Source: Gammaproteobacteria bacterium
GTDB taxonomy: Bacteria > Pseudomonadota > Gammaproteobacteria > WFUO01
DNA: 64,000 nt
Assembly: GCA_015484945.1 (NCBI GenBank)
Contig: WFUO01000061.1
Span: 88,066-152,065, forward strand
Reading direction: 5' to 3'
Made by a program: the position numbers and the translations under genes
Notes under the pieces: model-generated
The model's input: the letters and a program-made list of their open reading frames with translations, nothing else
The model's database searches: none
What the model was told of the DNA's origin: nothing
Shown: one piece after another, positions 24,691-60,836 of the stretch
Layout: every line of letters begins with the position of its first letter
How positions within the stretch are numbered: the first letter of the stretch is position 1

Positions 24691-24767
24691 CGGGGTATAG
24701 CGCAGTCTGGTAGCGCGCCTGCTTTGGGAGCAGGATGTCGGGAGTTCGAATCTCTCTACCCCGACCA
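24691..24767 (+). tRNA. tRNA-Pro (anticodon TGG)
   Basis: Manual cloverleaf: acceptor CGGGGTA/TACCCCG, D stem GCGC/GCGC, anticodon stem CCTGC/GCAGG, loop TTTGGGA, T arm GGGAG-TTCGAAT-CTCTC, encoded CCA. Confidence 0.93.
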
Positions 24768-25042
24768 GTTTTCCCGGCGGCAGGGCAGGAAGGTCTGCTG
24801 GAGGTCATTTGAATGTGACCGGTTGGCAGTAGAGAGGTTCGAACTCCCGACGTTTCGATCAGGCGAGTTCGACAAGCGGCGAAGCCGCGCAGAACGCTGG
24901 AGGCATCGAAGATGCCGACGGCGGCCCCGAAGGGGTGAGGGCGAAGCCCGAATAATCTCTCTACCCCGACCAGTTTTCCCGGCGGCAGGGCAGGAAGGTC
25001 TGCTGGAGGTCATTTGAATGTGACCGGTTGGCAGTAAAGAGG
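24749..25042 (+). repeat. 205-bp-period tandem duplication that includes the 3' end of tRNA-Pro
   Basis: 24749-24837 and 24954-25042 are identical at 88 of 89 positions. Each copy starts inside the tRNA-Pro T loop and runs through ..CCCCGACCA plus about 70 nt of downstream sequence. Confidence 0.9.
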
Positions 25043-25102
25043 GCCGCGGGCCTCCCGACCCAAAAGCCCGGCCAGGATGGCAGGACATGGTGGCAGGATT
25101 TC

Positions 25103-25179
<77 letters not shown>

Positions 25180-25209
25180 TTTAACATTTTGCCCCAATGA
25201 CAGTATGAT

Positions 25210-25286
25210 GGTGGCTGTAGCTCAGTTGGTAGAGCCCTGGATTGTGATTCCAGTCGTCGTGGGTTCGAGTCCCATCAGCCACCCCA
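25210..25286 (+). tRNA. tRNA-His (anticodon GTG)
   Basis: Extra G at position -1, anticodon stem CTGGA/TCCAG, loop TTGTGAT, encoded CCA. Confidence 0.92.
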
Positions 25287-25395
25287 GTTGTCAGACTACA
25301 GGCCCGGTCGCCGGATATATGCAGCGCGGCCGGCGTGTCTTTCGACACGCTTGCGGCAGTCTGGCGAGGTAGCCGGCTCAGGCCGGGTTTTGCAT

Positions 25396-25471
25396 GGGCC
25401 GTTAGCTCAGTTGGTAGAGCAGGAGACTCTTAATCTCTTGGTCGTAGGTTCGAGTCCTACACGGCCCACCA
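25396..25471 (+). tRNA. tRNA-Lys (anticodon CTT)
   Basis: Acceptor GGGCCGT/ACGGCCC, anticodon stem GGAGA/TCTCT, loop CTCTTAA, encoded CCA. Confidence 0.92.
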
Positions 25472-25573
25472 TTCTTCCTTCTCCCTTCGTCCCGAATGTG
25501 AAAATCCCCGCCAACACCGCAAAAAGCTGTCATCCGGCCACCGCATGGCTATATAATCAAGGATTTGCCAGGA

Positions 25574-25659
<86 letters not shown>

Positions 25660-32321: not shown

Positions 32322-32397
32322 GGGTGCTTAGCTCAGCTGGGAGAGCATCGCCCTTACAAGGCGAGGGTCGGGGGTTCGATCCCCTCAGCACCCACCA
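32322..32397 (+). tRNA. tRNA-Val (anticodon TAC)
   Basis: Acceptor GGGTGCT/AGCACCC, anticodon stem TCGCC/GGCGA, loop CTTACAA, encoded CCA. Confidence 0.92.
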
Positions 32398-32405
32398 TCA
32401 GATCC

Positions 32406-32482
32406 GGAGCGGTAGTTCAGTTGGTTAGAATACCGGCCTGTCACGCCGGGGGTCGCGGGTTCGAGTCCCGTCCGCTCCGCCA
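32406..32482 (+). tRNA. tRNA-Asp (anticodon GTC)
   Basis: Acceptor GGAGCGG/CCGCTCC, anticodon stem CCGGC/GCCGG, loop CTGTCAC, encoded CCA. Confidence 0.92.
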
Positions 32483-40348: not shown

Positions 40349-41850
40349 GCGTCAATGCACATAGGCGGGCCTGGTATCTGCGTCCTTTGTTGCTGGTGGC
40401 AGTAATGCTGGTATTGCTCAATGGTCTGCCACCGCTGTTCGGAGTCAGGGCCGCCTACCTGGTCACCGACAAGCTGATTTTTCTGTTGCTGACGATGGTG
40501 ATCTTTTTCGTTGCCTGGCTGCGTACCCGGCCTGATCAGCTTGGGCCGTGGATCGAGGTGTTTCGCAATCACCGCGCCATGGCTTCGGCGGTGGTCTTGC
40601 TGTGCTATGTGGCCGTTGGTCTGCTGGATTCCATTCATTTCCGCGAACCGCTGCCGGCGGTGGATGGCAAGCCGGTACAGTACAGTGTGCGCGAGACCAG
40701 TTTGTTCGATGTGTTGATGACGCCCTTCCGGACACGCACGGAAAAGAGCTATTCGGCGCCCATGGCACGCTACGCCTTGTCGAAGGAAATCCGCTATCTG
40801 CCCGACGGTACATCCAGGCGTGAATATCCGCGCCTGCGCCACGCTGGCATCGGAGTCAATGATGCGCATGATTTGCTCATTGATATCGGCTGGCGCACGG
40901 CCTGGGGCATGCTCGCCGGCATCATTGTGCTGATGGCGCTGGTTCTGCCTCTGTTGGTTGCGGGCGCAAGGCGCAGCGGCATGCGTGTGGCCGGCCTGTG
41001 GCGTGAGATCATGGCGGCACGCACGACCTTGCCATGGCGGACGGCGTTGATGACGGCCCTGGTGTTGTTCGTGGGCATTGGCATCCTCGTCAGTCTGGGC
41101 ATGAATTACCATGTTCTTGGCACCGACAAGGTCGGCAACGATGTGTTCTATCTGGCCACCAAGAGCATTCGCACCGGGCTTGTCATCGGCACCCTGACCA
41201 CGCTGGTGATGTTGCCGTTTGCGATATTGCTGGGCATCGCGGCCGGGTATTTCCGCGGCTGGGTGGATGATGTGATCCAGTATCTGTACACGACCCTGAA
41301 TTCGATACCCGGTGTACTGCTCATCGCCGCGGCCATTCTTTCGATTCAGGTCTATATCAGTAATCATCAGGCCAGTTTTGCGACCGCCAGCGCGCAGGCC
41401 GATCTTCGTCTGCTGGCGTTGTGCGTGATCCTCGGCATCACCAGCTGGACCGGCTTGTGCCGGCTGCTGCGCGGAGAGACTCTCAAATTGCGCGAGCATG
41501 ACTACATTACCGCCGCCCTGAGCTTCGGCGTGCGTCCGTTCCGGATTCTGCGCCAGCATGTGCTGCCCAATGTCATGCATATCGTTTTGATCGTTATCGT
41601 ACTGGATTTCAGTGGTCTGGTTCTGGCCGAAGCTGTGCTATCTTATGTCGGGGTAGGTGTCGATCCATCGACCGTCAGTTGGGGAAACATGATCAACAAT
41701 GCCCGGTTCGAGATGGGGAGGGAGCCGATGGTCTGGTGGACGCTGGTCGCCGCATTCGTGTTCATGTTCATGCTGGTGCTGGCCGCCAACCTGTTTGCCG
41801 ATGCGGTTCGTGATGCCTTCGATCCGCGTCTCAGGGATGGGTCGAGATGA
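40345..41850 (+). CDS. ABC transporter permease (DppC/YejE-like) with long N-terminal membrane extension
   Basis: The C-terminal about 300 aa is a DppC-type permease core. The N-terminal about 200 aa adds further hydrophobic helices. The start overlaps the upstream stop (ATGA). Confidence 0.85.
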   Translation: MSVNAHRRAWYLRPLLLVAVMLVLLNGLPPLFGVRAAYLVTDKLIFLLLTMVIFFVAWLRTRPDQLGPWIEVFRNHRAMASAVVLLCYVAVGLLDSIHFREPLPAVDGKPVQYSVRETSLFDVLMTPFRTRTEKSYSAPMARYALSKEIRYLPDGTSRREYPRLRHAGIGVNDAHDLLIDIGWRTAWGMLAGIIVLMALVLPLLVAGARRSGMRVAGLWREIMAARTTLPWRTALMTALVLFVGIGILVSLGMNYHVLGTDKVGNDVFYLATKSIRTGLVIGTLTTLVMLPFAILLGIAAGYFRGWVDDVIQYLYTTLNSIPGVLLIAAAILSIQVYISNHQASFATASAQADLRLLALCVILGITSWTGLCRLLRGETLKLREHDYITAALSFGVRPFRILRQHVLPNVMHIVLIVIVLDFSGLVLAEAVLSYVGVGVDPSTVSWGNMINNARFEMGREPMVWWTLVAAFVFMFMLVLAANLFADAVRDAFDPRLRDGSR

Positions 41851-41867
41851 ATCAAGGAGAAGTTGTC

Positions 41868-42314
41868 ATGGGTGAAACCGTACTGACCGAGAAACAGCGC
41901 TTCGCCGAGCGTCTCAACAGCGTGCTCGATGATATCGGTTTTCCGCGCCTGGGTCATGGACGCCAGAGCGCTCTGGCCAAATTGCTGGATGTGACGCCCG
42001 ATCAGGTCAGTGTCTGGCTCAAGGGCGAGGGGTATCCAAAGACCTCAAAGCTGGTCAAGATCGCCCAGCATGTCGGTGTGCGCTCCAACTGGCTGCTCTC
42101 GGGTGCGGGCGAGAAATACCCCTCGGAAAGCGATCGCCAGGAGACCGGCACGGGGAAACGTCATCCATCACCCGGCGTTCGGGAAGACGACAGCCTGCTG
42201 TCGCAGGAAGCCTTCGAGGTCGCGCTGATATGGATGCAGCTCTCGCCCGGTGAGCAGCGGGCCATGAAGGCCGCGATGTTGCAGCTGGCCAGGTCCGGCG
42301 GCAAGGGAGACTGA
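41868..42314 (+). CDS. Cro/C1 (XRE)-type helix-turn-helix protein
   Basis: [64 protein letters not shown] fits the HTH_3 pattern. AAGGAGAAG Shine-Dalgarno before ATG 41868. An upstream ATG at 41847 overlaps the permease stop. Confidence 0.75.
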
Positions 42315-44410: not shown

Positions 44411-45595
44411 ATGAATACAGCAGTCTTTCACCCACCGGTCCGCACGCTGATGGGGCCGGGTCCGTCCGATGTCAATCCGCGCATTCTCGAGGCCATGTCC
44501 CGGCCCACGATCGGTCATCTCGATCCGGTCTTTGTCGGCATGATGGACGAAGTCAAGGCCATGTTGCAGTATGCCTTCCAGACCACGAACAACCTGACGT
44601 TTCCGGTCTCGGCACCCGGTTCGGCCGGTATGGAGACCTGTTTCGTCAACCTCGTGGAACCCGGTGACAAGGTCATCGTGTGCCAGAACGGGGTTTTTGG
44701 CGGACGCATGAAGGAAAACGTGATCCGTTGTGGCGGCGAGGCCATCATGGTCGAGGACGAATGGGGCAAGGCCATCGACCTTGGTAAGGTCGAGCAGGCT
44801 CTCAAGGATCACCCGGATGCGAAGGTGCTGGCCTTCGTGCACGCCGAGACCTCCACCGGCGCCCAGTCAGACGCGGCAACCCTGTGTGCACTGGCGCGTG
44901 AGCATGACTGCCTGAGTATCGTGGATACCGTGACCTCGCTTGGCGGCACGCCGGTGAAGGTGGACGAATGGGGCGCCGATGCGGTCTATTCCGGCACCCA
45001 GAAATGCCTGAGCTGCGTGCCTGGCATCTCACCGGTCACGTTCAGTGAACGTGCCGAGGCCGCCATCAGGAACCGCAAGACGCCGGTACAGAGCTGGTTT
45101 CTGGATCTCAGCCTGGTCATGGGTTACTGGGGGCCAGGCGCCAAGCGCGCCTATCACCATACCGCGCCGATCAACACCCTCTATGCTCTGCACGAGGCGC
45201 TGGTGATCCTGCAGGAAGAAGGTCTGGAGAATGCCTGGGCGCGCCACCGCAGGAATCACGAGGCCCTGAAGGCCGGCATCGAGGCCATGGGCATGTCGTT
45301 TGTTGTCGATGAGGCCGACCGCTTGCCACAGCTCAACGCTGTGACCATACCGGAAGGTGTCGATGACGCCGAGGTGCGCACCCGTCTGCTGAACGACTAC
45401 GATCTCGAGATCGGGGCCGGGCTCGGTGCCCTGGCTGGCAAAATCTGGCGCATCGGCCTGATGGGTTTTGCCAGCAACGCGCGCAACGTGCTGTTCTGCC
45501 TGGGTGCGCTGGACAGCACCCTGACCAGTCTGGGCGCCAGAATCGAATCCGGTGCCGCGGTCGAGGCGGCGTGCAAGGTGCTCGATGCTTGTTAG
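44411..45595 (+). CDS. class V aminotransferase (alanine/serine--glyoxylate or serine--pyruvate type)
   Basis: LMGPGPSDVNPRILEAM N-terminus and PLP-lysine context YSGTQKCLS are typical of the AGXT/SgaA family. Confidence 0.85.
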   Translation: MNTAVFHPPVRTLMGPGPSDVNPRILEAMSRPTIGHLDPVFVGMMDEVKAMLQYAFQTTNNLTFPVSAPGSAGMETCFVNLVEPGDKVIVCQNGVFGGRMKENVIRCGGEAIMVEDEWGKAIDLGKVEQALKDHPDAKVLAFVHAETSTGAQSDAATLCALAREHDCLSIVDTVTSLGGTPVKVDEWGADAVYSGTQKCLSCVPGISPVTFSERAEAAIRNRKTPVQSWFLDLSLVMGYWGPGAKRAYHHTAPINTLYALHEALVILQEEGLENAWARHRRNHEALKAGIEAMGMSFVVDEADRLPQLNAVTIPEGVDDAEVRTRLLNDYDLEIGAGLGALAGKIWRIGLMGFASNARNVLFCLGALDSTLTSLGARIESGAAVEAACKVLDAC

Positions 45596-45760
45596 CAGTC
45601 TGTCGGACCCGGGAAGCATCTACTGCGCTGATGGGAACACGGAGCAAATCTTCCCGCTTTCTCGTTGCGTAGTCCCCACTATGCGCCTCGAGACCGGAAA
45701 GGTTTATCCTCGTGTTCCTGCCATGCTCGTGATGATCCCCTGAGTCCGACAGGCTGTTAG
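45592..45760. repeat. about 169-nt extragenic palindromic element (family 2, copy B)
   Basis: It aligns by eye along its whole length with 23496-23650. Termini are TTAGCAGTCTGTCGGAC / GTCCGACAGGCTGTTAG. The left end includes the TAG stop of the aminotransferase gene. Confidence 0.8.
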
Positions 45761-45825
45761 GTCATGACAGCCGCCGCCGCATGCCGTATCATGCAGCGGT
45801 TGATGTCATCGGAGAACCTTTATCC

Positions 45826-46449
45826 ATGGCCCCACAGATCGATGCCCTGGAGGCACTCAAGCGCCTGCGTGAAGGCAATGCCCGTTTTGTTGCCGGCCAG
45901 CGCGCGAACTTCCCCCTGTTTTCGGACGACAAGCGTGAGAAACTGTTGTCCGGACAACAACCGTTTGCGGTCATCCTGGGCTGTTCCGATTCCCGTGTTC
46001 CGGCCGAGATCGTCTTCGACCAGGGTCTCGGCGACCTGTTCGTGATCCGTGTGGCCGGCAATATCGTCGCGCCATCGCAGATTGGCAGCGTGGAGTTTGC
46101 CGTTTCACAGTTTGGCACCCGGCTGGTCGTGGTGCTGGGCCATTCCCGCTGCGGCGCCATTCTTGCCACCATTGACCAGTTGCGCCGGGGTGGCAGCAGT
46201 TCCTCGGCCAACATCAATGCCATCGTCGATCGCGTCAAGCCGTCGATCCAGGGCCTGATGGAGACCGATCTCGTCAACGATCAGGATGCCCTGGTGTGCT
46301 CGGCCATACGTGCCAATGTGCGTGCATCGGTTGCGCAGCTGCGGCATGGCTCGGCCATCATCGAACGGCATATCGCCGAGCACGGCTTGATGGTGGTCGG
46401 TGCCGAATACTCGCTCGAGACCGGTGAGGTCGAGTTCTTCGACGACTGA
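45826..46449 (+). CDS. can: beta-class carbonic anhydrase
   Basis: Zn-ligand motifs CSDSRV and HSRCGA are present. GGAGAA Shine-Dalgarno before the ATG at 45826. Confidence 0.9.
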   Translation: MAPQIDALEALKRLREGNARFVAGQRANFPLFSDDKREKLLSGQQPFAVILGCSDSRVPAEIVFDQGLGDLFVIRVAGNIVAPSQIGSVEFAVSQFGTRLVVVLGHSRCGAILATIDQLRRGGSSSSANINAIVDRVKPSIQGLMETDLVNDQDALVCSAIRANVRASVAQLRHGSAIIERHIAEHGLMVVGAEYSLETGEVEFFDD

Positions 46450-46570
46450 GGCCGGGCCTGTTCACACACCCTTGAAAAATACCTGACTGATCCCATAATG
46501 TATGGCGATCGCCACAGGGCGGTTTCCAGTAGCCCTTTTTACTTATCTTGTACATGACAGGAGCGTAAAA

Positions 46571-46768
46571 ATGACTGCAGAATCACTGACCCTGAAACCT
46601 CACAGCTATGACAAGCTCGGCGCCATTCACTGCGGCGTCCTCGAGGATTACACCGCCGTATGCGCTGGCGACCTGCACAAGCTCGATGACGGCGAATCCT
46701 GGACCTTCGAGCGTGCCAGGGTCACCGTCAGACGGGATGGCGAGGAGTTCGTCTTTACCCGGCAATAG
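46571..46768 (+). CDS. hypothetical small acidic protein (65 aa)
   Basis: AGGAG Shine-Dalgarno 8 nt before the ATG. No signal peptide and no recognisable family. Confidence 0.5.
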   Translation: MTAESLTLKPHSYDKLGAIHCGVLEDYTAVCAGDLHKLDDGESWTFERARVTVRRDGEEFVFTRQ

Positions 46769-46921
46769 CCGTTCTTTGCCGGCTGCTCCGATCAAAGGCC
46801 GTTACTGACCGGCATACCGCATGTTGGTCAGCAATGGCCCGTTCAGATTCTGTTCAGCTTCAGGTGTTAACATTCCAGCGAAATACTTTTAATAACAATA
46901 ATCTTTTTGTCTGGAGGTTAT

Positions 46922-47167
46922 ATGAAATACCTGATGGTTCTCTTGCCACTGATATTGTCTTTACCGGCCCTGGCCAAACAGGGGGCGGTTAAAGCTGGAA
47001 TGTGTGTCATCGTCTATTCGAACGACCATTTAGTTACAGGTGCATGCCATAACCCGCGTGTGACGTGTAACAGCGACAAGACCTGCACGATCCAGGGTTA
47101 TCGTGTCAAGGGACGGGTCAAAACCGGCCCGATGCCGCGCGGCCGGGGCGTCAAGGCCATTCGATGA
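46922..47167 (+). CDS. small secreted four-cysteine protein, paralog 1 (81 aa)
   Basis: GGAGG Shine-Dalgarno and signal peptide MKYLMVLLPLILSLPALA. Mature part has 4 Cys and a basic tail. It shares the motif CVI..C....V.CN....CT[IV].G with the next gene. Confidence 0.7.
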   Translation: MKYLMVLLPLILSLPALAKQGAVKAGMCVIVYSNDHLVTGACHNPRVTCNSDKTCTIQGYRVKGRVKTGPMPRGRGVKAIR

Positions 47168-47186
47168 ACCAATTCAGGAGAAGCGC

Positions 47187-47444
47187 ATGAAAACCATTCT
47201 GACGACATTATTCCTATCCATTGCCTTGACCGCCTCGATGGTTGCGACCGCCGCCCGTGGTACGGTACATGAGTACGGTGTTCGATGGTGTGTCATCGAT
47301 GACAACGGTATCAAGGATGCATATCGCTGTGACGCCGTTGGGGTCGATTGCAACATGAAAACCGGCGATTGCACCGTCAACGGACGTCGCGGGAAGGTGA
47401 GCAAGAAACCGGTTCGCAAAATGCCAGGACGCGCCATGCACTGA
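47187..47444 (+). CDS. small secreted four-cysteine protein, paralog 2 (85 aa)
   Basis: AGGAG Shine-Dalgarno and signal peptide MKTILTTLFLSIALTASMVATA. It has the same Cys spacing as paralog 1 and a basic tail. Confidence 0.7.
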   Translation: MKTILTTLFLSIALTASMVATAARGTVHEYGVRWCVIDDNGIKDAYRCDAVGVDCNMKTGDCTVNGRRGKVSKKPVRKMPGRAMH

Positions 47445-47611
47445 CGTGACAGTCTGCCCACTGTGTTCAATTGGTGTCACGGAAGACATCAAAAAATGTT
47501 GGTTTCCGGTTGTGACACAGATGGCTTGACGATTGACCTGCCGGTTAACCACTTTATACCTTTGGGTGCGTTAGACCCAATGGCACGAGTGGCCAGACAC
47601 AGGAGGGGGGT

Positions 47612-48520
47612 ATGATCAAGTCGAATCGAACCAACTATGACCTGGGCGTGGGAAATGCAAGATATTGCGTTTCATGCGGACTGATTGCCATTTTTCTGCT
47701 TCTGATTATGGTGGTGTTGCCTGTGTATGCGTCGGCAGGTGACAGCGCCCGGGTCTCGGCCCCGGGCGGGCGTATCATCCTGGCATACCATGGCGGCCGT
47801 GTTACCACGCCTCGATACCGTTCCAGTGGCTACCGGTCGATACGTACGTATCGAGGTGGTGGCCGCAGTTACCGCCCGCGAATCCGCTATCGGCGATCAC
47901 GTTCCGGTACCTATCGTTTGCGGGTTCGTCGGAGTCGTACCCGGGTCTATCGTTCACGCGTCCGGGTACGCCGGGCCAGGGCTTATCGTTCACGTGTCCG
48001 GACGCTTCGGGCCAGGCAGGCGCGCGTCCGGACGCTTCGGGCCAGGCAGGCGCGCGTCCGGACGCTTCGGGCCAGGCAGGCACGCGTCCGGGCGCTCCGG
48101 GCCAGGCAGGCGCGCATCCGGGCGCTCCGGGCCAGGCAGGCGCGCATCCGGGCGCTCCGGGTCAGGCAGGCGCGCATCCGGGCGCTCCGGGCCAGGCAGG
48201 CGCGCATCCGGGCGCTCCGGGCCAGGCAGGCGCGCATCCGGGCGCTCCGGGCCAGGCAGGCGCGCATCCGGGCGCTCCGGGCCAGGCAGCCACGGATCCG
48301 TGCTCGACGGGTCAGCTATAACAAACGTCCGATCTTTCTCACCGGCAAGGGTGCTGCCCGGCGAGGCGCGCGCAACCCGGCGATCAAAGCCATGCGCAAG
48401 AGTCGCCTGGCAGTGCGTGACAGCATGCGGAAGACACGCAGAAAGGTGCAAAAGGATATGGCTCGTCAGCGCAAGCGGTTCACAGGTATGAACAAGAATC
48501 CGCTGGTCAGGGGCAAGTAA
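47612..48520 (+). CDS. membrane-anchored/secreted arginine-rich tandem-repeat protein (302 aa)
   Basis: Strong Shine-Dalgarno AGGAGGGGGG. One hydrophobic helix (CGLIAIFLLLIMVVLPVYA), then an R/Y/S/G-rich region, then about ten RARQAR[IV]R[AT]L repeats and a Lys/Arg-rich tail. This frame has G/C at every third codon position of the repeat unit, unlike the two alternative frames. Confidence 0.75.
   Translation: MIKSNRTNYDLGVGNARYCVSCGLIAIFLLLIMVVLPVYASAGDSARVSAPGGRIILAYHGGRVTTPRYRSSGYRSIRTYRGGGRSYRPRIRYRRSRSGTYRLRVRRSRTRVYRSRVRVRRARAYRSRVRTLRARQARVRTLRARQARVRTLRARQARVRALRARQARIRALRARQARIRALRVRQARIRALRARQARIRALRARQARIRALRARQARIRALRARQPRIRARRVSYNKRPIFLTGKGAARRGARNPAIKAMRKSRLAVRDSMRKTRRKVQKDMARQRKRFTGMNKNPLVRGK
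47996..48295 (+). repeat. 30-bp tandem repeat, about 10 units, inside the CDS
   Basis: Unit GTCCGGACGCTTCGGGCCAGGCAGGCGCGC, with two sub-variants (GACGCTTCGG in units 1-3, GGCGCTCCGG in units 4-10) and very few other substitutions. Confidence 0.95.
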
Positions 48521-48540
48521 ATCGTGAAAAAGGCGTGTTA

Positions 48541-50172
48541 TCAGACACTGCCGGACTGGCGGGTGACATCGACATAGACGGTCAGGCGCTGGCCGGGCTG
48601 CAGATAGCGCCCACGGATGCGGTTCCAGCGCTTGAGCTGGCGTATGGTCACACGGAAGCGGCTGGCGATGCGCGCCAGTGAGTCGCCCCGCCGCACGGTG
48701 TAGTAGATGGCCTGACGGCGCTGCGCCAGGGGATTGCGTCCCAGTAATGCGGCGTGTCCGGGACGCGCTGGCCGCTTGCGCCAGATCACCAGTTTCTGCC
48801 CCGGCCGCAGGTGGTCGCGCGGTGCCATGCCGTTCCATTTCGCCAGCCGGCGTACCGATACCCGGTAGGTTCGCGACAGGTTCCAGAGATTGTCTCCCGG
48901 GCGCACTGTGTGCACATGACGATAGCCCTTGCCGCTGCGCTGCAGGCGCCGCAGGCGCTGTTCGGCGGCCAGGCTGTAGTGACGCAGATTTTTACGTGCA
49001 ACGGGAATGATCAGATGACGGCCGGCACGTATGGCGTGGCCACGAATGCGGTTGATGCGGCGGATGAGAGCGACACTGGTTCGGTAGCGCCGGGCAATGG
49101 CGATCAGCGATTCTCCAGGGCGGATGCGATGCCGCTTCCATTTCAGCCGTCGGCTGGCCGGCAGACGCGCGAAGCGTTCCCGGAAGCGTTTCGCATGTGT
49201 GACTGGCAGCAGCAGGTAGTGCGGTCCGGCAGGATCGGTGGCCCAACGGTTGAAACCCGGGTTGAGGCGGTAGATCTCGCGAATGTCGAGCCCTGCCAGT
49301 TCCGCCGCCAAAGCCAGATCGATCTGTGAGCCGGTCCTGACTTTCGCCAGGTACGGTGCGTCGATGATGGGCCGCAGGCGGATGCCGTATTTTTCGGGTG
49401 TGGCGACGATGTTGCTCAATGCCAGCAATTTGGGGACATAGCCACGGGTCTCCCGGGGCAGATACAGGTGCCAGAAATCGGTCTTGCGTCCCAGCCGGCG
49501 GTTGAAGCGGATGGCCCGGGCAACCGTGCCAGCGCCGGAATTGTACGCCGCCAGCGCCAGCAGCCAGTCCCCCTTGAAGCGCTTGTGCAGGCGTTGCAGA
49601 AGATCCAGCGCCGCGTGGGTCGAGGCGATTACGTCCCGACGGCCGTCATACCACCAGTTTTGCCTGAGACCGAAACGGCGGCCGGTGGACGGGATGAACT
49701 GCCAGATGCCGGCTGCCCGGCCATGGGAGTAGGCGAACGGTTGGAAGGCGCTTTCCACCGCCGGCAGCAGGGCGATCTCGGTGGGCATGCCACGGCGCCG
49801 GATTTCCTCGACGATCAGATGCAGAAACGGCTCGGCCCGTTGCATGACCCGTTCGATGTATTCCGGATGACGCGCGTACCAGCGCAGGTCATTGCGGATT
49901 CGGGGATGATCACGGTCCGGTAGCCGGAAACCGGCGCGTATGCGTTGCCAGATGGTCGGCGGGCGTGCCAGATTGCCGACAGGCCTGGCATCGGCGGGGA
50001 CGTGCACGCCCGCGGCGAGCGCGGCCGTCGTCATGGCCGGTGGCGGCGATGCCGACATCGCAGGAACCGTGTGCGTAACCGGATCGGTTCGCAGGCCAAC
50101 GGTATTGCAGCCATTCAACAGCAGGATGCCGGCAATGAGCCCAAGGATTCTCATTAGTGCTTGATTCATCAA
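48541..50172 (-). CDS. mltD: membrane-bound lytic murein transglycosylase D
   Basis: SLT domain (LPAVESAFQPFAYSHGRAAGIWQFIPSTG) followed by three LysM repeats (e.g. HRIRPGESLIAIARRY, HTVRPGDNLWNLSRTY, YTVRRGDSLARIASRF). Lipoprotein-like N-terminus LLNGC. Confidence 0.9.
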   Translation of the reverse strand: MMNQALMRILGLIAGILLLNGCNTVGLRTDPVTHTVPAMSASPPPAMTTAALAAGVHVPADARPVGNLARPPTIWQRIRAGFRLPDRDHPRIRNDLRWYARHPEYIERVMQRAEPFLHLIVEEIRRRGMPTEIALLPAVESAFQPFAYSHGRAAGIWQFIPSTGRRFGLRQNWWYDGRRDVIASTHAALDLLQRLHKRFKGDWLLALAAYNSGAGTVARAIRFNRRLGRKTDFWHLYLPRETRGYVPKLLALSNIVATPEKYGIRLRPIIDAPYLAKVRTGSQIDLALAAELAGLDIREIYRLNPGFNRWATDPAGPHYLLLPVTHAKRFRERFARLPASRRLKWKRHRIRPGESLIAIARRYRTSVALIRRINRIRGHAIRAGRHLIIPVARKNLRHYSLAAEQRLRRLQRSGKGYRHVHTVRPGDNLWNLSRTYRVSVRRLAKWNGMAPRDHLRPGQKLVIWRKRPARPGHAALLGRNPLAQRRQAIYYTVRRGDSLARIASRFRVTIRQLKRWNRIRGRYLQPGQRLTVYVDVTRQSGSV

Positions 50173-54618: not shown

Positions 54619-54924
54619 TTACTGGTGAAGATCGGCGTACTTGGCTTTCTTGGCCTGTTCCATGCCCAGCTTGGCGTGGGTCTTGGCCATGTTGGCCAGC
54701 TTGATGGCCTTGGCGTAGTTACCCTTGCGGTAGGCCTTCTTGGCCGGCCCCAGCAGCTTTTTATAGGTATCACGCCACTCGAAGCCCATCTTGCGGACCT
54801 TGTTGTTGGCCTGAACAGCGGCAAGGATGGCATTGGCGGCCTGGGCGCGGGTTGCCTTGCCGGCGATGGCACTGGTGGCGCCGAAAGCAAGCAGCATGGT
54901 GAGCAGGATTGCGATCTTCTTCAT
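54619..54924 (-). CDS. small secreted Lys/Ala-rich helical protein (101 aa)
   Basis: Signal peptide MKKIAILLTMLLAFGATSAIA and GGAG Shine-Dalgarno. Family uncertain (possibly DUF4398-like, from memory). Confidence 0.6.
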   Translation of the reverse strand: MKKIAILLTMLLAFGATSAIAGKATRAQAANAILAAVQANNKVRKMGFEWRDTYKKLLGPAKKAYRKGNYAKAIKLANMAKTHAKLGMEQAKKAKYADLHQ

Positions 54925-58302: not shown

Positions 58303-59217
58303 TCAGATAGTGCGCTCGATCTGTTCCGCTTCCCGCAGTACCAGCTGCGCGAAGGCCGATGCGGCCGGGCTCAGGCGTTTTCCCTCGCGTTGCACCAGGT
58401 ACCATTCCCGTTGCAGGGGGAACCCCTGGATGTCCAATACGCACAACTGTCCCGACGCGATCTCTGCCCTGACCGTGTGTAACGATACCAGACCCAGGCC
58501 CAAACCCGCCTCGACTGCGTGCTTGATGGCTTCATTCTTGTTCATCTCCATGGCGGGTTCAAACTGATGGCCATGTTCCGTGAACAATTTCTCCAGTGCC
58601 ATCCGGGTGCCTGATCCCTGTTCCCGTCCGATCAGGGGTTCATTGACGAGTCTGGAAAACGGAATATCGCGTTTATTTGCGAGTGCATGATCCGTGGCGG
58701 CAATAATGACCAGCGGGTTTTTCATAAAGGCTTGCGCAACGAGGTGAGAATTTTCGGGAGGTTTTCCCATCAGCGCCAGATCGATGCTGTTTGCCGAGAG
58801 ATGCTGTAGCAAGGTTGCACGGTTGACAACATTTAGGAAGGTGTGAACGTCAGGATGCAGGGTGCGAAACAGCGCGACCAGGCGTGCAGCAAAAACACTC
58901 GCTGTGCTGGTTGCAGAAACGGTGAGTGTGCCACCCTTCAAACCCTGAATATCAGCCAGTGTGTGTTCCAGATTGACCAGTTGCTGTTCTATCACCTCAC
59001 CGCATTCCAGTACCGCCCTTCCAGCCTCGGTGAGGTGAATCTTCTTGCCCATATGTTCGAACAGTGGAATGCCAAGCATGGCTTCGAGTTGCTTGATTTG
59101 CATCGAAACCGCTGGCTGCGTGAGGTGCAGTTCACTGCTTGCGCGTGAAAAGCTTTCATGATGCGCAACGGCGGTGAGTATCTGGAGTTGTCGCAGGGTA
59201 ACCTTAAGCATAATCAA
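58303..59217 (-). CDS. cbbR: LysR-family transcriptional regulator, RuBisCO operon type
   Basis: LysR HTH (LRQLQILTAVAHHESFSRASSELHLTQPAVSMQIKQLE). It is divergently adjacent to cbbM. Confidence 0.85.
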   Translation of the reverse strand: MIMLKVTLRQLQILTAVAHHESFSRASSELHLTQPAVSMQIKQLEAMLGIPLFEHMGKKIHLTEAGRAVLECGEVIEQQLVNLEHTLADIQGLKGGTLTVSATSTASVFAARLVALFRTLHPDVHTFLNVVNRATLLQHLSANSIDLALMGKPPENSHLVAQAFMKNPLVIIAATDHALANKRDIPFSRLVNEPLIGREQGSGTRMALEKLFTEHGHQFEPAMEMNKNEAIKHAVEAGLGLGLVSLHTVRAEIASGQLCVLDIQGFPLQREWYLVQREGKRLSPAASAFAQLVLREAEQIERTI

Positions 59218-59426
59218 AACTTTGATATATACAAAAATATACTGAATATACCTTATAACACGCGTACTTTATAGTGTCTTTACTGCAAGGGAAACCCTGA
59301 TTGCCTGTATTGCCGTGTTCCCGGACGGAGCGGAATCCAGCGATTTGAATAATGGGCATTGCGTTTGGCGGAATGCTTCAGGGTCAGGGCTTTCCCGTGT
59401 TTTTCAGGCAAATACCGGAGGTTCCC
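59218..59426. promoter_or_regulatory. divergent cbbR-cbbM control region
   Basis: The AT-rich segment 59218-59300 contrasts with the window as a whole. The LysR/target-gene geometry implies CbbR operator(s) and both promoters lie here. I could not fix individual sites. Confidence 0.5.
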
Positions 59427-60836
59427 ATGTCAAACGATCAATCGGGTCGCTATGCAAATCTGGATCTGAAAGAAGAAGAGCTGATTGCCGGCGGCAAACA
59501 CCTGCTGGTGGCATACCGTATGAAACCGGCTGACGGGCACGGTTTCCTGGCCGTTGCGGCACACGTTGCCGCCGAGTCTTCGACAGGTACCAATGTCGAG
59601 GTCTGTACCACCGACGATTTCACCCGCGGTGTGGATGCACTGGTCTATGAAATCGACGAGCACGCCTTCGGTGACAAGGGCGGCCTGATGAAGATCGCCT
59701 ATCCTGTCGAGTTGTTCGATCCGAACCTGACAGACGGTACCTACAATGTTTCTCACATGTGGTCGCTGATACTGGGAAACAACCAGGGCATGGGCGACCA
59801 TGAAGGCCTGCGTATGCTTGATTTCCTGGTGCCGGAATGCATGATCAAGCGCTTCGATGGTCCTTCCGCGAATATCAGCAACCTGTGGAAGGTTCTCGGG
59901 CGTCCTGAGCAGCATGGGGGCTATATTGCGGGAACCATCATCAAGCCCAAGCTGGGACTGCGTCCCGAGCCTTTCGCAAAGGCTTGTTACGATTTCTGGC
60001 TTGGCGGTACGTTCATCAAGAACGACGAGCCGCAGGCCAACCAGCCTTTCTGTCCGATGAAAGAAGTGATCCCGCTGGTTGCCCAGGCCATGGATCGTGC
60101 ACAGCAGGAAACCGGCGAGGCCAAACTGTTTTCCGCGAACATCACCGCCGACTTCCATCAAGAAATGATCCATCGGGGCGAGTACGTTCTGGAACAGTTC
60201 GCCAAATACGATTCCGCCGATCACGTTGCCTTTCTCGTCGATGGCTTCGTCACCGGTCCGGCCGGGGTGACGACCTGCCGTCGCGCCTTCCCGGACACCT
60301 TCCTGCATTTCCATCGAGCAGGTCATGGAGCCTTGACTTCCTACAAATCGCCGATGGGCATGGATCCGGTCTGTTACATGAAGATGGCACGACTGATGGG
60401 GGCCTCCGGGATTCATACAGGCACCATGGGTTATGGCAAGATGGAAGGTCATGCCGGTGAGACGGTCATGGCGTACATGCTGGAGCGTGATGAGTGTCAG
60501 GGCCCTTACTTCTATCAGAAATGGTATGGAATGAAGGCAACCACGCCGATCATCTCAGGTGGCATGAACGCCCTGCGCCTGCCGGGTTTCTTCGAGAACC
60601 TGGGGCACGGCGATTTGATCAATACCTGTGGCGGTGGTTCCTTCGGTCACATCGATGGGCCGGCGGCCGGCGGCAAGTCCCTTGACCAGGCATACCAGTG
60701 CTGGAAGGAGGGTGCCGATCCCATCGAATTCGCCAAACAACATCGGGAATTTGCGCGTGCATTCGAGTCATTTCCTGGTGATGCCGACAGGCTGTTCCCG
60801 GGTTGGCGCGAAAAACTCGGCGTCAAGGTGGCCTGA
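59427..60836 (+). CDS. cbbM: ribulose-1,5-bisphosphate carboxylase/oxygenase, form II
   Basis: [35 protein letters not shown]-terminus, active-site [12 protein letters not shown] and FIKNDEPQ, and no small-subunit gene. GGAGG Shine-Dalgarno before the ATG at 59427. Confidence 0.95.

Follow-up and report, generated by a model that had tools for sequence, protein, structure and literature searches.

What are the four genes that lie between can and mltD in this gammaproteobacterial DNA, and do they form one system? The window (the whole stretch of 64,000 nucleotides that was analysed, from contig WFUO01000061.1 of assembly GCA_015484945.1) carries at this place four open reading frames (ORFs), g1 to g4, in which a sequence-only reading, made without database searches, had seen a self-contained cassette of unrecognised secreted or cationic proteins. 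A conserved four-gene system is not supported by our results. Instead, we tentatively propose, with less than even confidence, a lineage-specific accessory islet at the variable junction between an aminotransferase gene, agt, and mltD of an uncultured vent gammaproteobacterium. At least three independent units would lie side by side in this islet, and the products of g2, g3 and g4 would be exported, locally cationic proteins that bind their partners electrostatically.

All four co-oriented ORFs are present on the forward strand, as had been described: g1 at 46571-46768 (65 amino acids, isoelectric point (pI) 5.2, net charge -4), g2 at 46922-47167 (a precursor of 81 residues), g3 at 47187-47444 (a precursor of 85 residues) and g4 at 47612-48520 (302 residues, net charge +95, pI 12). 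Each ATG is preceded at 5-7 nt by a strong Shine-Dalgarno sequence (AGGAG, GGAGG or AGGAGG), that of g4 being AGGAGG at 6 nt. While g3 begins 19 nt after g2, a gap of 167 nt separates g3 from g4. The description of three of the products was also accurate, since g2 and g3 encode four-cysteine mini-proteins with basic tails and signal peptides, the latter read by eye, and g4 encodes an arginine-repeat protein with a single hydrophobic helix, 88 arginines (29% of its residues) and ten 30-bp repeats.

Codon usage was scored after training on 22 conserved genes of the window, and the six frames were compared. The annotated frame was the best-scoring one for g1, g2, g3 and the non-repeat parts of g4. 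The scores of can (0.76) and g1 (0.58) are host-like, and those of g2, g3 and g4 lie between 0.0 and 0.3; within g4, the C-terminal tail reaches +0.30, the N-terminal part is close to 0, and the two strands are indistinguishable by this score inside the repeat array. Five contigs, 97-100% identical and coming from several hydrothermal-vent-deposit metagenomes and one metagenome-assembled genome (MAG), carry the same arrangement. The within-species single-nucleotide polymorphisms (SNPs) in g2, g3 and the N-terminus of g4 are few and all synonymous. Furthermore, when the 3' part of g4 was compared with a diverged allele of the same species (contig L003), 7 of the 11 non-repeat differences were synonymous and 4 non-synonymous, and over the whole of g4 codon position 3 takes 11 of the 18 differences (binomial p = 0.014). 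At the level of sequence, these comparisons show g1 to g4 to be genuine genes. A reverse-strand ORF at 47990-48838 was considered as the real gene in this region and rejected: it covers part of mltD in another frame, and the SNPs at third positions of g4 codons would be first-position changes in it, which argues against it.

Regarding composition, the AT-rich spacers that had been pointed out are indeed there, with 34% GC at 46850-46920 against 60% for the whole window and 34-52% across the spacers of the islet. The term low-GC cassette, on the other hand, suits only the spacers together with g2 and g3 (54% each), and fits neither g1 (59%) nor g4 (66%, its repeat array 81%).

We then looked at the neighbourhood in related genomes, taking one genome per GTDB species. 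The right-hand anchor, mltD (48541-50172, reverse strand), encodes lytic murein transglycosylase D with an SLT and three LysM domains (NCBIfam MltD, E 4e-126) and is convergent with g4, their stop codons being 20 nt apart. Its nearest relatives, found in vent or sediment Chromatiales or Thiohalomonadales MAGs, are only 60-64% identical, indicating that this lineage is poorly sampled. The conserved left-hand anchor is agt (44411-45595, forward strand), a class-V aminotransferase gene assigned by a library profile match and by synteny. Two relatives, L070 and L006, whose agt is 76-79% identical, have no insert: their convergent agt and mltD genes are immediate neighbours, and the same ATP-binding cassette (ABC) ATPase gene lies upstream. 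This adjacency marks the 2945 bp that separate the stop codons of agt and mltD (45596-48540), can included, as a variable islet, and agt-mltD synteny extends to two further relatives (L014 and L042). Based on these comparisons, which rest on sequence, the agt/mltD junction behaves as a recurrent site of insertion or variation. An extra segment, for which the sequence-only reading had suggested checking between can and mltD, is thus present, with can forming part of it. By the same token, the placement of the genes between two housekeeping genes holds insofar as can and mltD do flank them, but can itself belongs to the variable segment (45826-46449, forward strand; beta-class carbonic anhydrase, Pro_CA, E 3e-39; alternative start at 45781).

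At the same junction, L042 carries a gene for a Mem_trans transporter together with short repeated elements, and L014 about 0.9 kb of DNA. The islet lacks the features of a mobile genomic island, namely mobility genes, a tRNA gene and flanking repeats: a direct-repeat scan of 45500-48700 returned no flanking pair, there is no tRNA gene within 13 kb (the nearest lie at 32.3-32.5 kb), and we recognised no integrase among the genes scanned, no integrase-like ORF in the islet and no insertion sequence (IS) element. Two other origins were considered and discarded. Against the idea that can travels with the cassette, four close homologues of can (70-77% identity) have unrelated surroundings, and no cassette follows them. 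Against a phage lysis module beside mltD, this gene is the conserved syntenic copy, and PHROG gave no support.

The four genes were found together nowhere else. Profile hidden Markov models (HMMs) of the g1 and g2/g3 families detected no members near mltD in 80 relatives, the g1 homologues of L090 and L096 stand by themselves, and the g2/g3-type genes found in two other genomes (L089 and L092) have no g1 upstream on what are short contigs. The proposal of a self-contained four-gene module therefore did not survive, as g1 has homologues in other contexts, g4 is an orphan, and only the g2/g3 pair recurs (in L089); the check for co-occurrence had to rely on informative contigs that are short. The sequence-only reading had itself named a lack of co-occurrence as refuting its proposal, and this outcome applies to the set of four but not to the g2/g3 pair.

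The product of g1 is acidic and has no signal peptide. We searched 1.84 billion representative proteins by phmmer with a single query joining g1, g2, g3 and the non-repeat ends of g4, and this query returned families for g1 and g2 only, none for g3 or g4. For g1, 18 matches at E < 1e-3 span query residues 1-65; the closest is P0125 (60% identity, E 2e-14), and the others include P0126 and P0129-P0144. Stand-alone members measure 64-111 amino acids. Their alignment (A6), whose defining features g1 shares, gives a consensus of about 60 residues, LxLxPxxYxKLGxxHCGV...GD...L.DG...F.R..I.V.R.G.EY.FT., and the AlphaFold2 model of g1 has four strands (predicted local distance difference test (pLDDT) score of 64). 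No member has a Pfam or NCBIfam match. As far as these alignments and the model allow, g1 is a member of an undescribed, widespread domain family of about 60 residues that is predicted to be beta-rich. Its homologues occur between a PCMT methyltransferase gene and trpC (L090) or beside a SprT-like gene (L096), and g1 is probably a cytoplasmic single-domain protein unrelated to the rest of the islet.

The same domain also occurs in two to five C-terminal copies in large proteins (P0127, P0133, P0135, P0144 and P0136), with five copies in P0127 (L097 6001-9243). All of these except P0136 begin with a conserved N-terminal transmembrane helix (MxMFLLQxLLxLLxAFxLGY...) and continue with long acidic repeats of the PDVxLPKVDV type. 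In L097, the giant gene comes after a BON-OmpA gene. This architecture, membrane-anchored and combining acidic repeats with g1 domains, is undescribed.

The N-termini of g2 and g3 are hydrophobic signal-like segments of n-h-c organisation, ending ALA↓K in g2 and ATA↓A in g3. The mature parts of about 62-63 residues contain four cysteines each and end in a tail with a charge of +8 over about 20 residues, the mature net charges being +10 for g2 and +6 for g3. That the two are paralogues, as had been suggested, finds modest support in their sequences (30% identity, E 0.001, a score reached by 85 of 5000 shuffles), but all four cysteines align in register across five family members, which supports paralogy. 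Remote homologues of g2 are P0128 (45% identity) and P0139 (42%), the phmmer E-values obtained with g2 being 1e-8 and 6e-5. In the five-member alignment (A4), C28, C42, C49, C55, G26, G59, G64 and V66 are invariant, and the family is defined by a signal peptide, the motifs G..C, C[TS][IV]xG and GxV, and cysteine gaps of about 13, 6 and 5-6. Both g2 and g3 fit this definition, and the HMM of the family recovers just the five members. Subtype A, with gaps of 13, 6 and 5, comprises g2, P0128 and P0139. Subtype B, with gaps of 12-13, 6 and 6 and the motifs VR[WY]C and CNxxTGxC, comprises g3 (gaps 12, 6 and 6) and its nearest relative, a 99-residue ORF at 244-543 of L089; it is by its cysteine register and its similarity to this ORF that g3 was placed in the family.

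On L089, the 99-residue subtype B gene is followed by the gene for P0128, which makes an A/B tandem in the order opposite to that of the window; the contig stops 5 bp beyond the second gene. Since an adjacent A/B pair has been kept in two unrelated genomes, an old duplication and a joint function appear probable. In other words, these gene orders suggest that the pair predates this lineage and that A and B probably act together. The L089 contig comes from an unrelated marine metagenome, and the DNA of its pair (244-910) has 31-46% GC next to DNA of 63%. In all three genomes, the genes of the g2/g3 family lie 10-20 GC points below the adjacent DNA (43-51% vs 63%). The AlphaFold2 model of g2 (overall pLDDT 61) has a small beta core (64-77) and a tail below 50. 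A scan of Joint Genome Institute (JGI) metagenome DNA with the degenerate motif CxSDxTCTIxG[YF] gave three chance matches in unrelated ORFs and nothing else, indicating that the family is rare.

The fourth product begins with a hydrophobic segment (residues 19-42, 47666-47737, forward strand) that would act either as a cleavable Sec signal or as a membrane anchor. It is the sole such stretch of the protein, with hydropathy up to 2.8 over 19 residues, and it ends P-V-Y-A-S-A↓G. Residues 63-128 (47798-47996, forward strand) form a degenerate region rich in Arg, Tyr and Ser (RYRSSGYRSIRTYR...) that includes decayed repeat copies. The tandem array proper (47997-48300, forward strand) consists of 10.1 copies of a 30-bp unit (Tandem Repeats Finder score 510, 96% matches), near-perfect and in frame, each encoding [AT]LRARQAR[IV]R, so that an arginine falls every 5 residues ([AQT][LA]R[AIV]R; autocorrelation 0.93 at lag 5). 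GC at third codon positions is 94% in the g4 frame of the array. Decayed repeats flank the array on both sides, and the repeat family (D1) can be followed back to 47937 at 68-85% identity. A non-repeat, basic Lys/Arg tail of 72 residues (48302-48517, forward strand) closes the protein.

We also found that g4 varies within the species. In L003, which comes from another vent sample, positions 1190-1290, corresponding to 47485-48267 of the window, join the g3-g4 spacer to a single repeat unit; the Shine-Dalgarno sequence, the start codon, the signal segment and about nine repeats are gone. An assembly artefact was considered, and the joined regions share no k-mer longer than about 16 nt, which makes a real deletion allele more likely than a misassembly, although this does not prove it. 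The retained 3' end of g4 is 6.7% diverged as against 0.2-0.3% in the flanks, suggesting recombination with a more distant g4 allele. From these alleles, g4 is apparently both variable and dispensable.

Database searches brought little further. As had been anticipated, the products match no described family in Pfam, NCBIfam, PADLOC or the PDB sequences. With a cut-off of E <= 1, Pfam and NCBIfam gave no match to any of the four beyond noise for g3 (E 0.06), and the members of the g2/g3 family are likewise without a match in either. PADLOC returned nothing for g1-g3 and a weak, non-significant DrmA match for g4 (E 0.015). The sole PHROG match (16267, function not assigned in PHROG, E 4e-11) covers only the Arg/Ala repeat of g4 and is likely compositional. 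Single and profile searches of the PDB sequences with g1-g4 found nothing significant, the g4 query giving a weak similarity to the N-terminal domain of uL23 (its rRNA-binding basic extension, E 0.017), and Foldseek searches of the PDB with the AlphaFold2 models of g1 and g2 gave no match below E 0.7. In a word-indexed search of 5.8 billion proteins, g4 had no match and g2 matched only itself; clustering at 90% identity left g1, g2 and g3 as singletons. Among the 1.84 billion representatives, too, nothing homologous to the non-repeat ends of g4 was found. Viral contigs contained no relatives of g2, g3 or g4, and plasmids none of g1, g2 or g4. Finally, we found nothing comparable to g1-g4 in the literature.

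How, then, could the islet be built? We favour three units. The first would consist of can and g1, with their host-like codon usage. The second would be a two-gene operon of lower GC, g2-g3, encoding Sec-exported, beta-rich mini-proteins of the A and B subtypes that probably hold two disulfides and here carry disordered basic tails. The third would be g4, a dispensable component of variable length, in which a Sec-signal-or-anchor N-terminus precedes about 170 residues of Arg-rich repeats able to expand and contract. The separation into units draws on the homologues of g1 elsewhere, on the coding scores of g1 (0.58) and g2-g4 (0.0-0.3), and on an imperfect hairpin 3' of g1 (46797-46839, forward strand; 19-nt arms, 79% complementary, 5-nt loop). 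The hairpin may be a transcript boundary; it has no trailing T-run, and the terminator scan made no call there. A sigma-70-like promoter match lies 5' of g1 (TTGAAA-16-CATAAT, 46472-46499, forward strand; 10/12 in a consensus scan, a pattern match only), and an Rfam scan of 45500-48700 gave no RNA element even at E <= 1.

The products of g2-g4 would most likely reach the periplasm or the cell surface, where these polycations could bind an anionic partner such as lipopolysaccharide (LPS), extracellular DNA (eDNA), polyphosphate, an acidic polysaccharide or a mineral surface. The location in the envelope or outside the cell that the sequence-only reading had proposed is thus plausible for g2, g3 and g4, with their Sec-type N-termini and basic character. 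In g4, the N-terminal flank has a net charge of +2 and the 20 residues after the hydrophobic segment +1, the Arg-rich part coming later; the A-S-A↓G site and these near-neutral residues fit an exported protein. The sequences show the genes, their family relationships, the orphan status of g4, the islet and its variation among strains, whereas we infer that g2-g4 are exported, that cysteines pair in disulfides, what the proteins bind and whether g2/g3 and g4 cooperate at all.

Several points weigh against this explanation. The signal peptides of g2, g3 and g4 were all called by eye. The AlphaFold2 models of g1 and g2 reach only pLDDT 61-64, a low confidence, and match no fold. The other contigs with mini-protein genes stop right after them, at the very place where a repeat would break an assembly and before any gene in the position of g4. 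Moreover, the mature net charge within the g2/g3 family ranges from -3 to +10 (P0139 -3, P0128 +1), which makes basicity a local feature and not a family trait; such uneven charge weakens polyanion binding as a function of the family. The cysteines of g2 and g3 could also be metal ligands instead of disulfide partners. Finally, the repeat domain of g4 could face the cytoplasm, since the positive-inside rule disfavours Sec export of a domain with 86 arginines and a charge of +93, and, as read from its sequence, the length of the hydrophobic segment of g4 (21-23 residues) and the very strong positive charge of the remaining protein equally fit an anchor with a cytoplasmic domain.

This last point leads to an alternative that we regard as unlikely: g4 would be anchored in the inner membrane, its arginine repeats would lie in the cytoplasm and bind polyphosphate or nucleic acid much as a membrane-anchored protamine or an H1-like tail might, and it would have nothing to do with the exported pair g2 and g3. 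Apart from the positive-inside rule, a hydrophobic stretch of the length of a transmembrane helix, the weak similarity to the rRNA-binding uL23 domain and the 167-nt gap between g3 and g4 speak for it, whereas the charge difference across the helix (+2 before, +1 in the first 20 residues after) favours an N-in/C-out orientation, and behind the helix comes a canonical A-S-A↓G cleavage site that has Pro at -6. That g4 is no functional gene at all, and that a GC-rich minisatellite within a degenerating, variable spacer created its ORF or preserved it, we consider improbable. Several frames of the repeat are free of stops, and within the array a frame on the reverse strand also has a good score; no homologue was found, a natural allele lacks the start codon and the signal segment, and the N-terminal coding score is about 0. 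Yet 201 non-repeat codons are open in one frame, for which we estimate a chance of about 1e-3, the ATG has its Shine-Dalgarno sequence, the g4 frame is the best one on both flanks of the array, and the differences seen in L003 favour position 3 of that frame.

Two other alternatives concern mainly the mini-proteins. It appears quite unlikely to us that g2 and g3, possibly with g4, form a small acquired islet of antagonistic peptides of the bacteriocin, toxin or protamine-like antimicrobial kind. Small, cationic, cysteine-stabilised secreted paralogues in tandem would suit such a role, as would their patchy and rare distribution, the lower-GC DNA in three genomes and the general membrane activity of Arg-rich polycations. 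On the other hand, two family members are not cationic, and tests for microcins or double-glycine bacteriocins found classical signal peptides instead of a double-glycine leader, no C39 domain among the neighbours scanned, and no exporter, processing or immunity gene that we could recognise. The upstream ABC system is an importer (SBP_bac_5/BPD_transp_1/oligo_HPY), PADLOC gave nothing beyond the DrmA match to g4, and PHROG nothing meaningful. A role of g2 and g3 as periplasmic metal binders, with the four cysteines ligating Cu, Zn, Cd or an Fe-S cluster as an adaptation to metal-rich vent deposits, seems improbable. It would agree with four invariant, closely spaced cysteines (gaps 6 and 5-6) in an exported protein and with a vent-deposit habitat as judged by sample names. 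In the oxidising periplasm, in contrast, cysteine pairs usually form disulfides, and tests for high-potential iron-sulfur protein (HiPIP), Fe-S or zinc-ribbon features gave neither CxxC nor HiPIP spacing, no twin-arginine (Tat) motif and no Pfam or other metal-binding-family match; a zinc-ribbon match in the PDB was non-significant (E 0.6).

A more novel reading is conceivable and, in our view, a long shot: the A/B pair and the expandable g4 together might make an exported protamine-like scaffold that condenses or nucleates an anionic polymer or a mineral precursor at the cell surface of a chemolithoautotroph living in vent deposits. Candidate partners would be eDNA, polyphosphate, polysulfide, silica or metal sulfide, and the repeat number would tune the matrix.

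We next asked which described systems the islet resembles. It shares with ORFan islets at variable syntenic junctions the extra DNA between conserved genes, the atypical GC or codon usage of g2-g4, the products without annotated homologues and a presence that varies by strain. It differs from them in having no integrase, tRNA gene, IS element or direct repeat, and in carrying a carbonic anhydrase gene of conserved type and a g1 with host-like codon usage.

The resemblances of single products are analogies. Like TolA and TonB, g4 has an N-terminal helix and, after it, a long stretch of charged repeats that could reach across the periplasm; unlike theirs, its repeats consist almost entirely of Arg and Ala and contain no acidic residue, and we found neither a TolA_C or TonB_C domain nor tolQR or exbBD among the genes 10 kb upstream or those identified downstream. 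The histone-H1-like tails of AlgP and PhaF are built on Lys, Ala and Pro and lie in the cytoplasm, and they come with neither a signal nor a transmembrane segment. They resemble g4 in their short tandem basic repeats and in forming a polyanion-binding tail on a localising module, whereas g4 is Arg-based, has a Sec-like N-terminus and shows no detectable sequence similarity to them. A 30-bp in-frame array whose copy number can change without a frameshift, with one allele of a single unit, recalls surface proteins with variable-number tandem repeats (VNTRs). In contrast to those, copy-number polymorphism of g4 was seen once, on one short metagenome contig, and nothing points to g4 being exposed at the surface or subject to phase or antigenic variation.

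For g2 and g3, the comparison is with the sulfur globule envelope proteins (Sgps; SgpA/B/C) of purple sulfur bacteria, Gly/Tyr-rich, repetitive proteins with no conserved four-cysteine core. These are likewise small, paralogous, Sec-exported proteins of Gammaproteobacteria, structural ones in sulfur-oxidisers; g2 and g3 are non-repetitive and have four cysteines, a composition unlike that of the Sgps. No sulfur-oxidation genes were recognised among the genes of the window that were scanned.

Taken by themselves, the sequences are new, as they add two undescribed small families and one orphan, but an islet of ORFans at a variable junction in a poorly sampled lineage is an ordinary phenomenon, and nothing indicates a system of a new kind. 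The g1 domain and the g2/g3 family are both absent from Pfam and NCBIfam, and would extend protein-family space by a small amount. If it is expressed, g4 would be among the most Arg-rich bacterial proteins with a secretion-type N-terminus, and would test how much positive charge Sec tolerates. The locus has as yet no bearing on long-standing questions and remains a well-characterised set of hypothetical proteins.

Some further observations concern can and the rest of the window. An imperfect palindrome with 20-nt arms (80% complementary) lies at 45764-45809 and overlaps the longer alternative start of can; gene calls in the metagenomes use the shorter form of 207 amino acids, starting at 45826. 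About 11 kb from can, a gene for the RuBisCO large chain (59352-60836) stands beside a divergent LysR regulator gene (58303-59217), and its presence in the window suggests that the host is probably a chemolithoautotroph. Rfam identified two tRNA clusters, five genes at 24691-25656 and two at 32322-32479. Inside the oligopeptide-type ABC transporter operon, between its permease and its ATPase gene, a gene at 41847-42314 encodes a 155-residue HTH_3/CI-repressor-like protein. Lastly, another small exported protein, of 101 residues and with a signal peptide, is encoded on the reverse strand at 54619-54924 and gave a weak, sub-threshold match to DUF1771.

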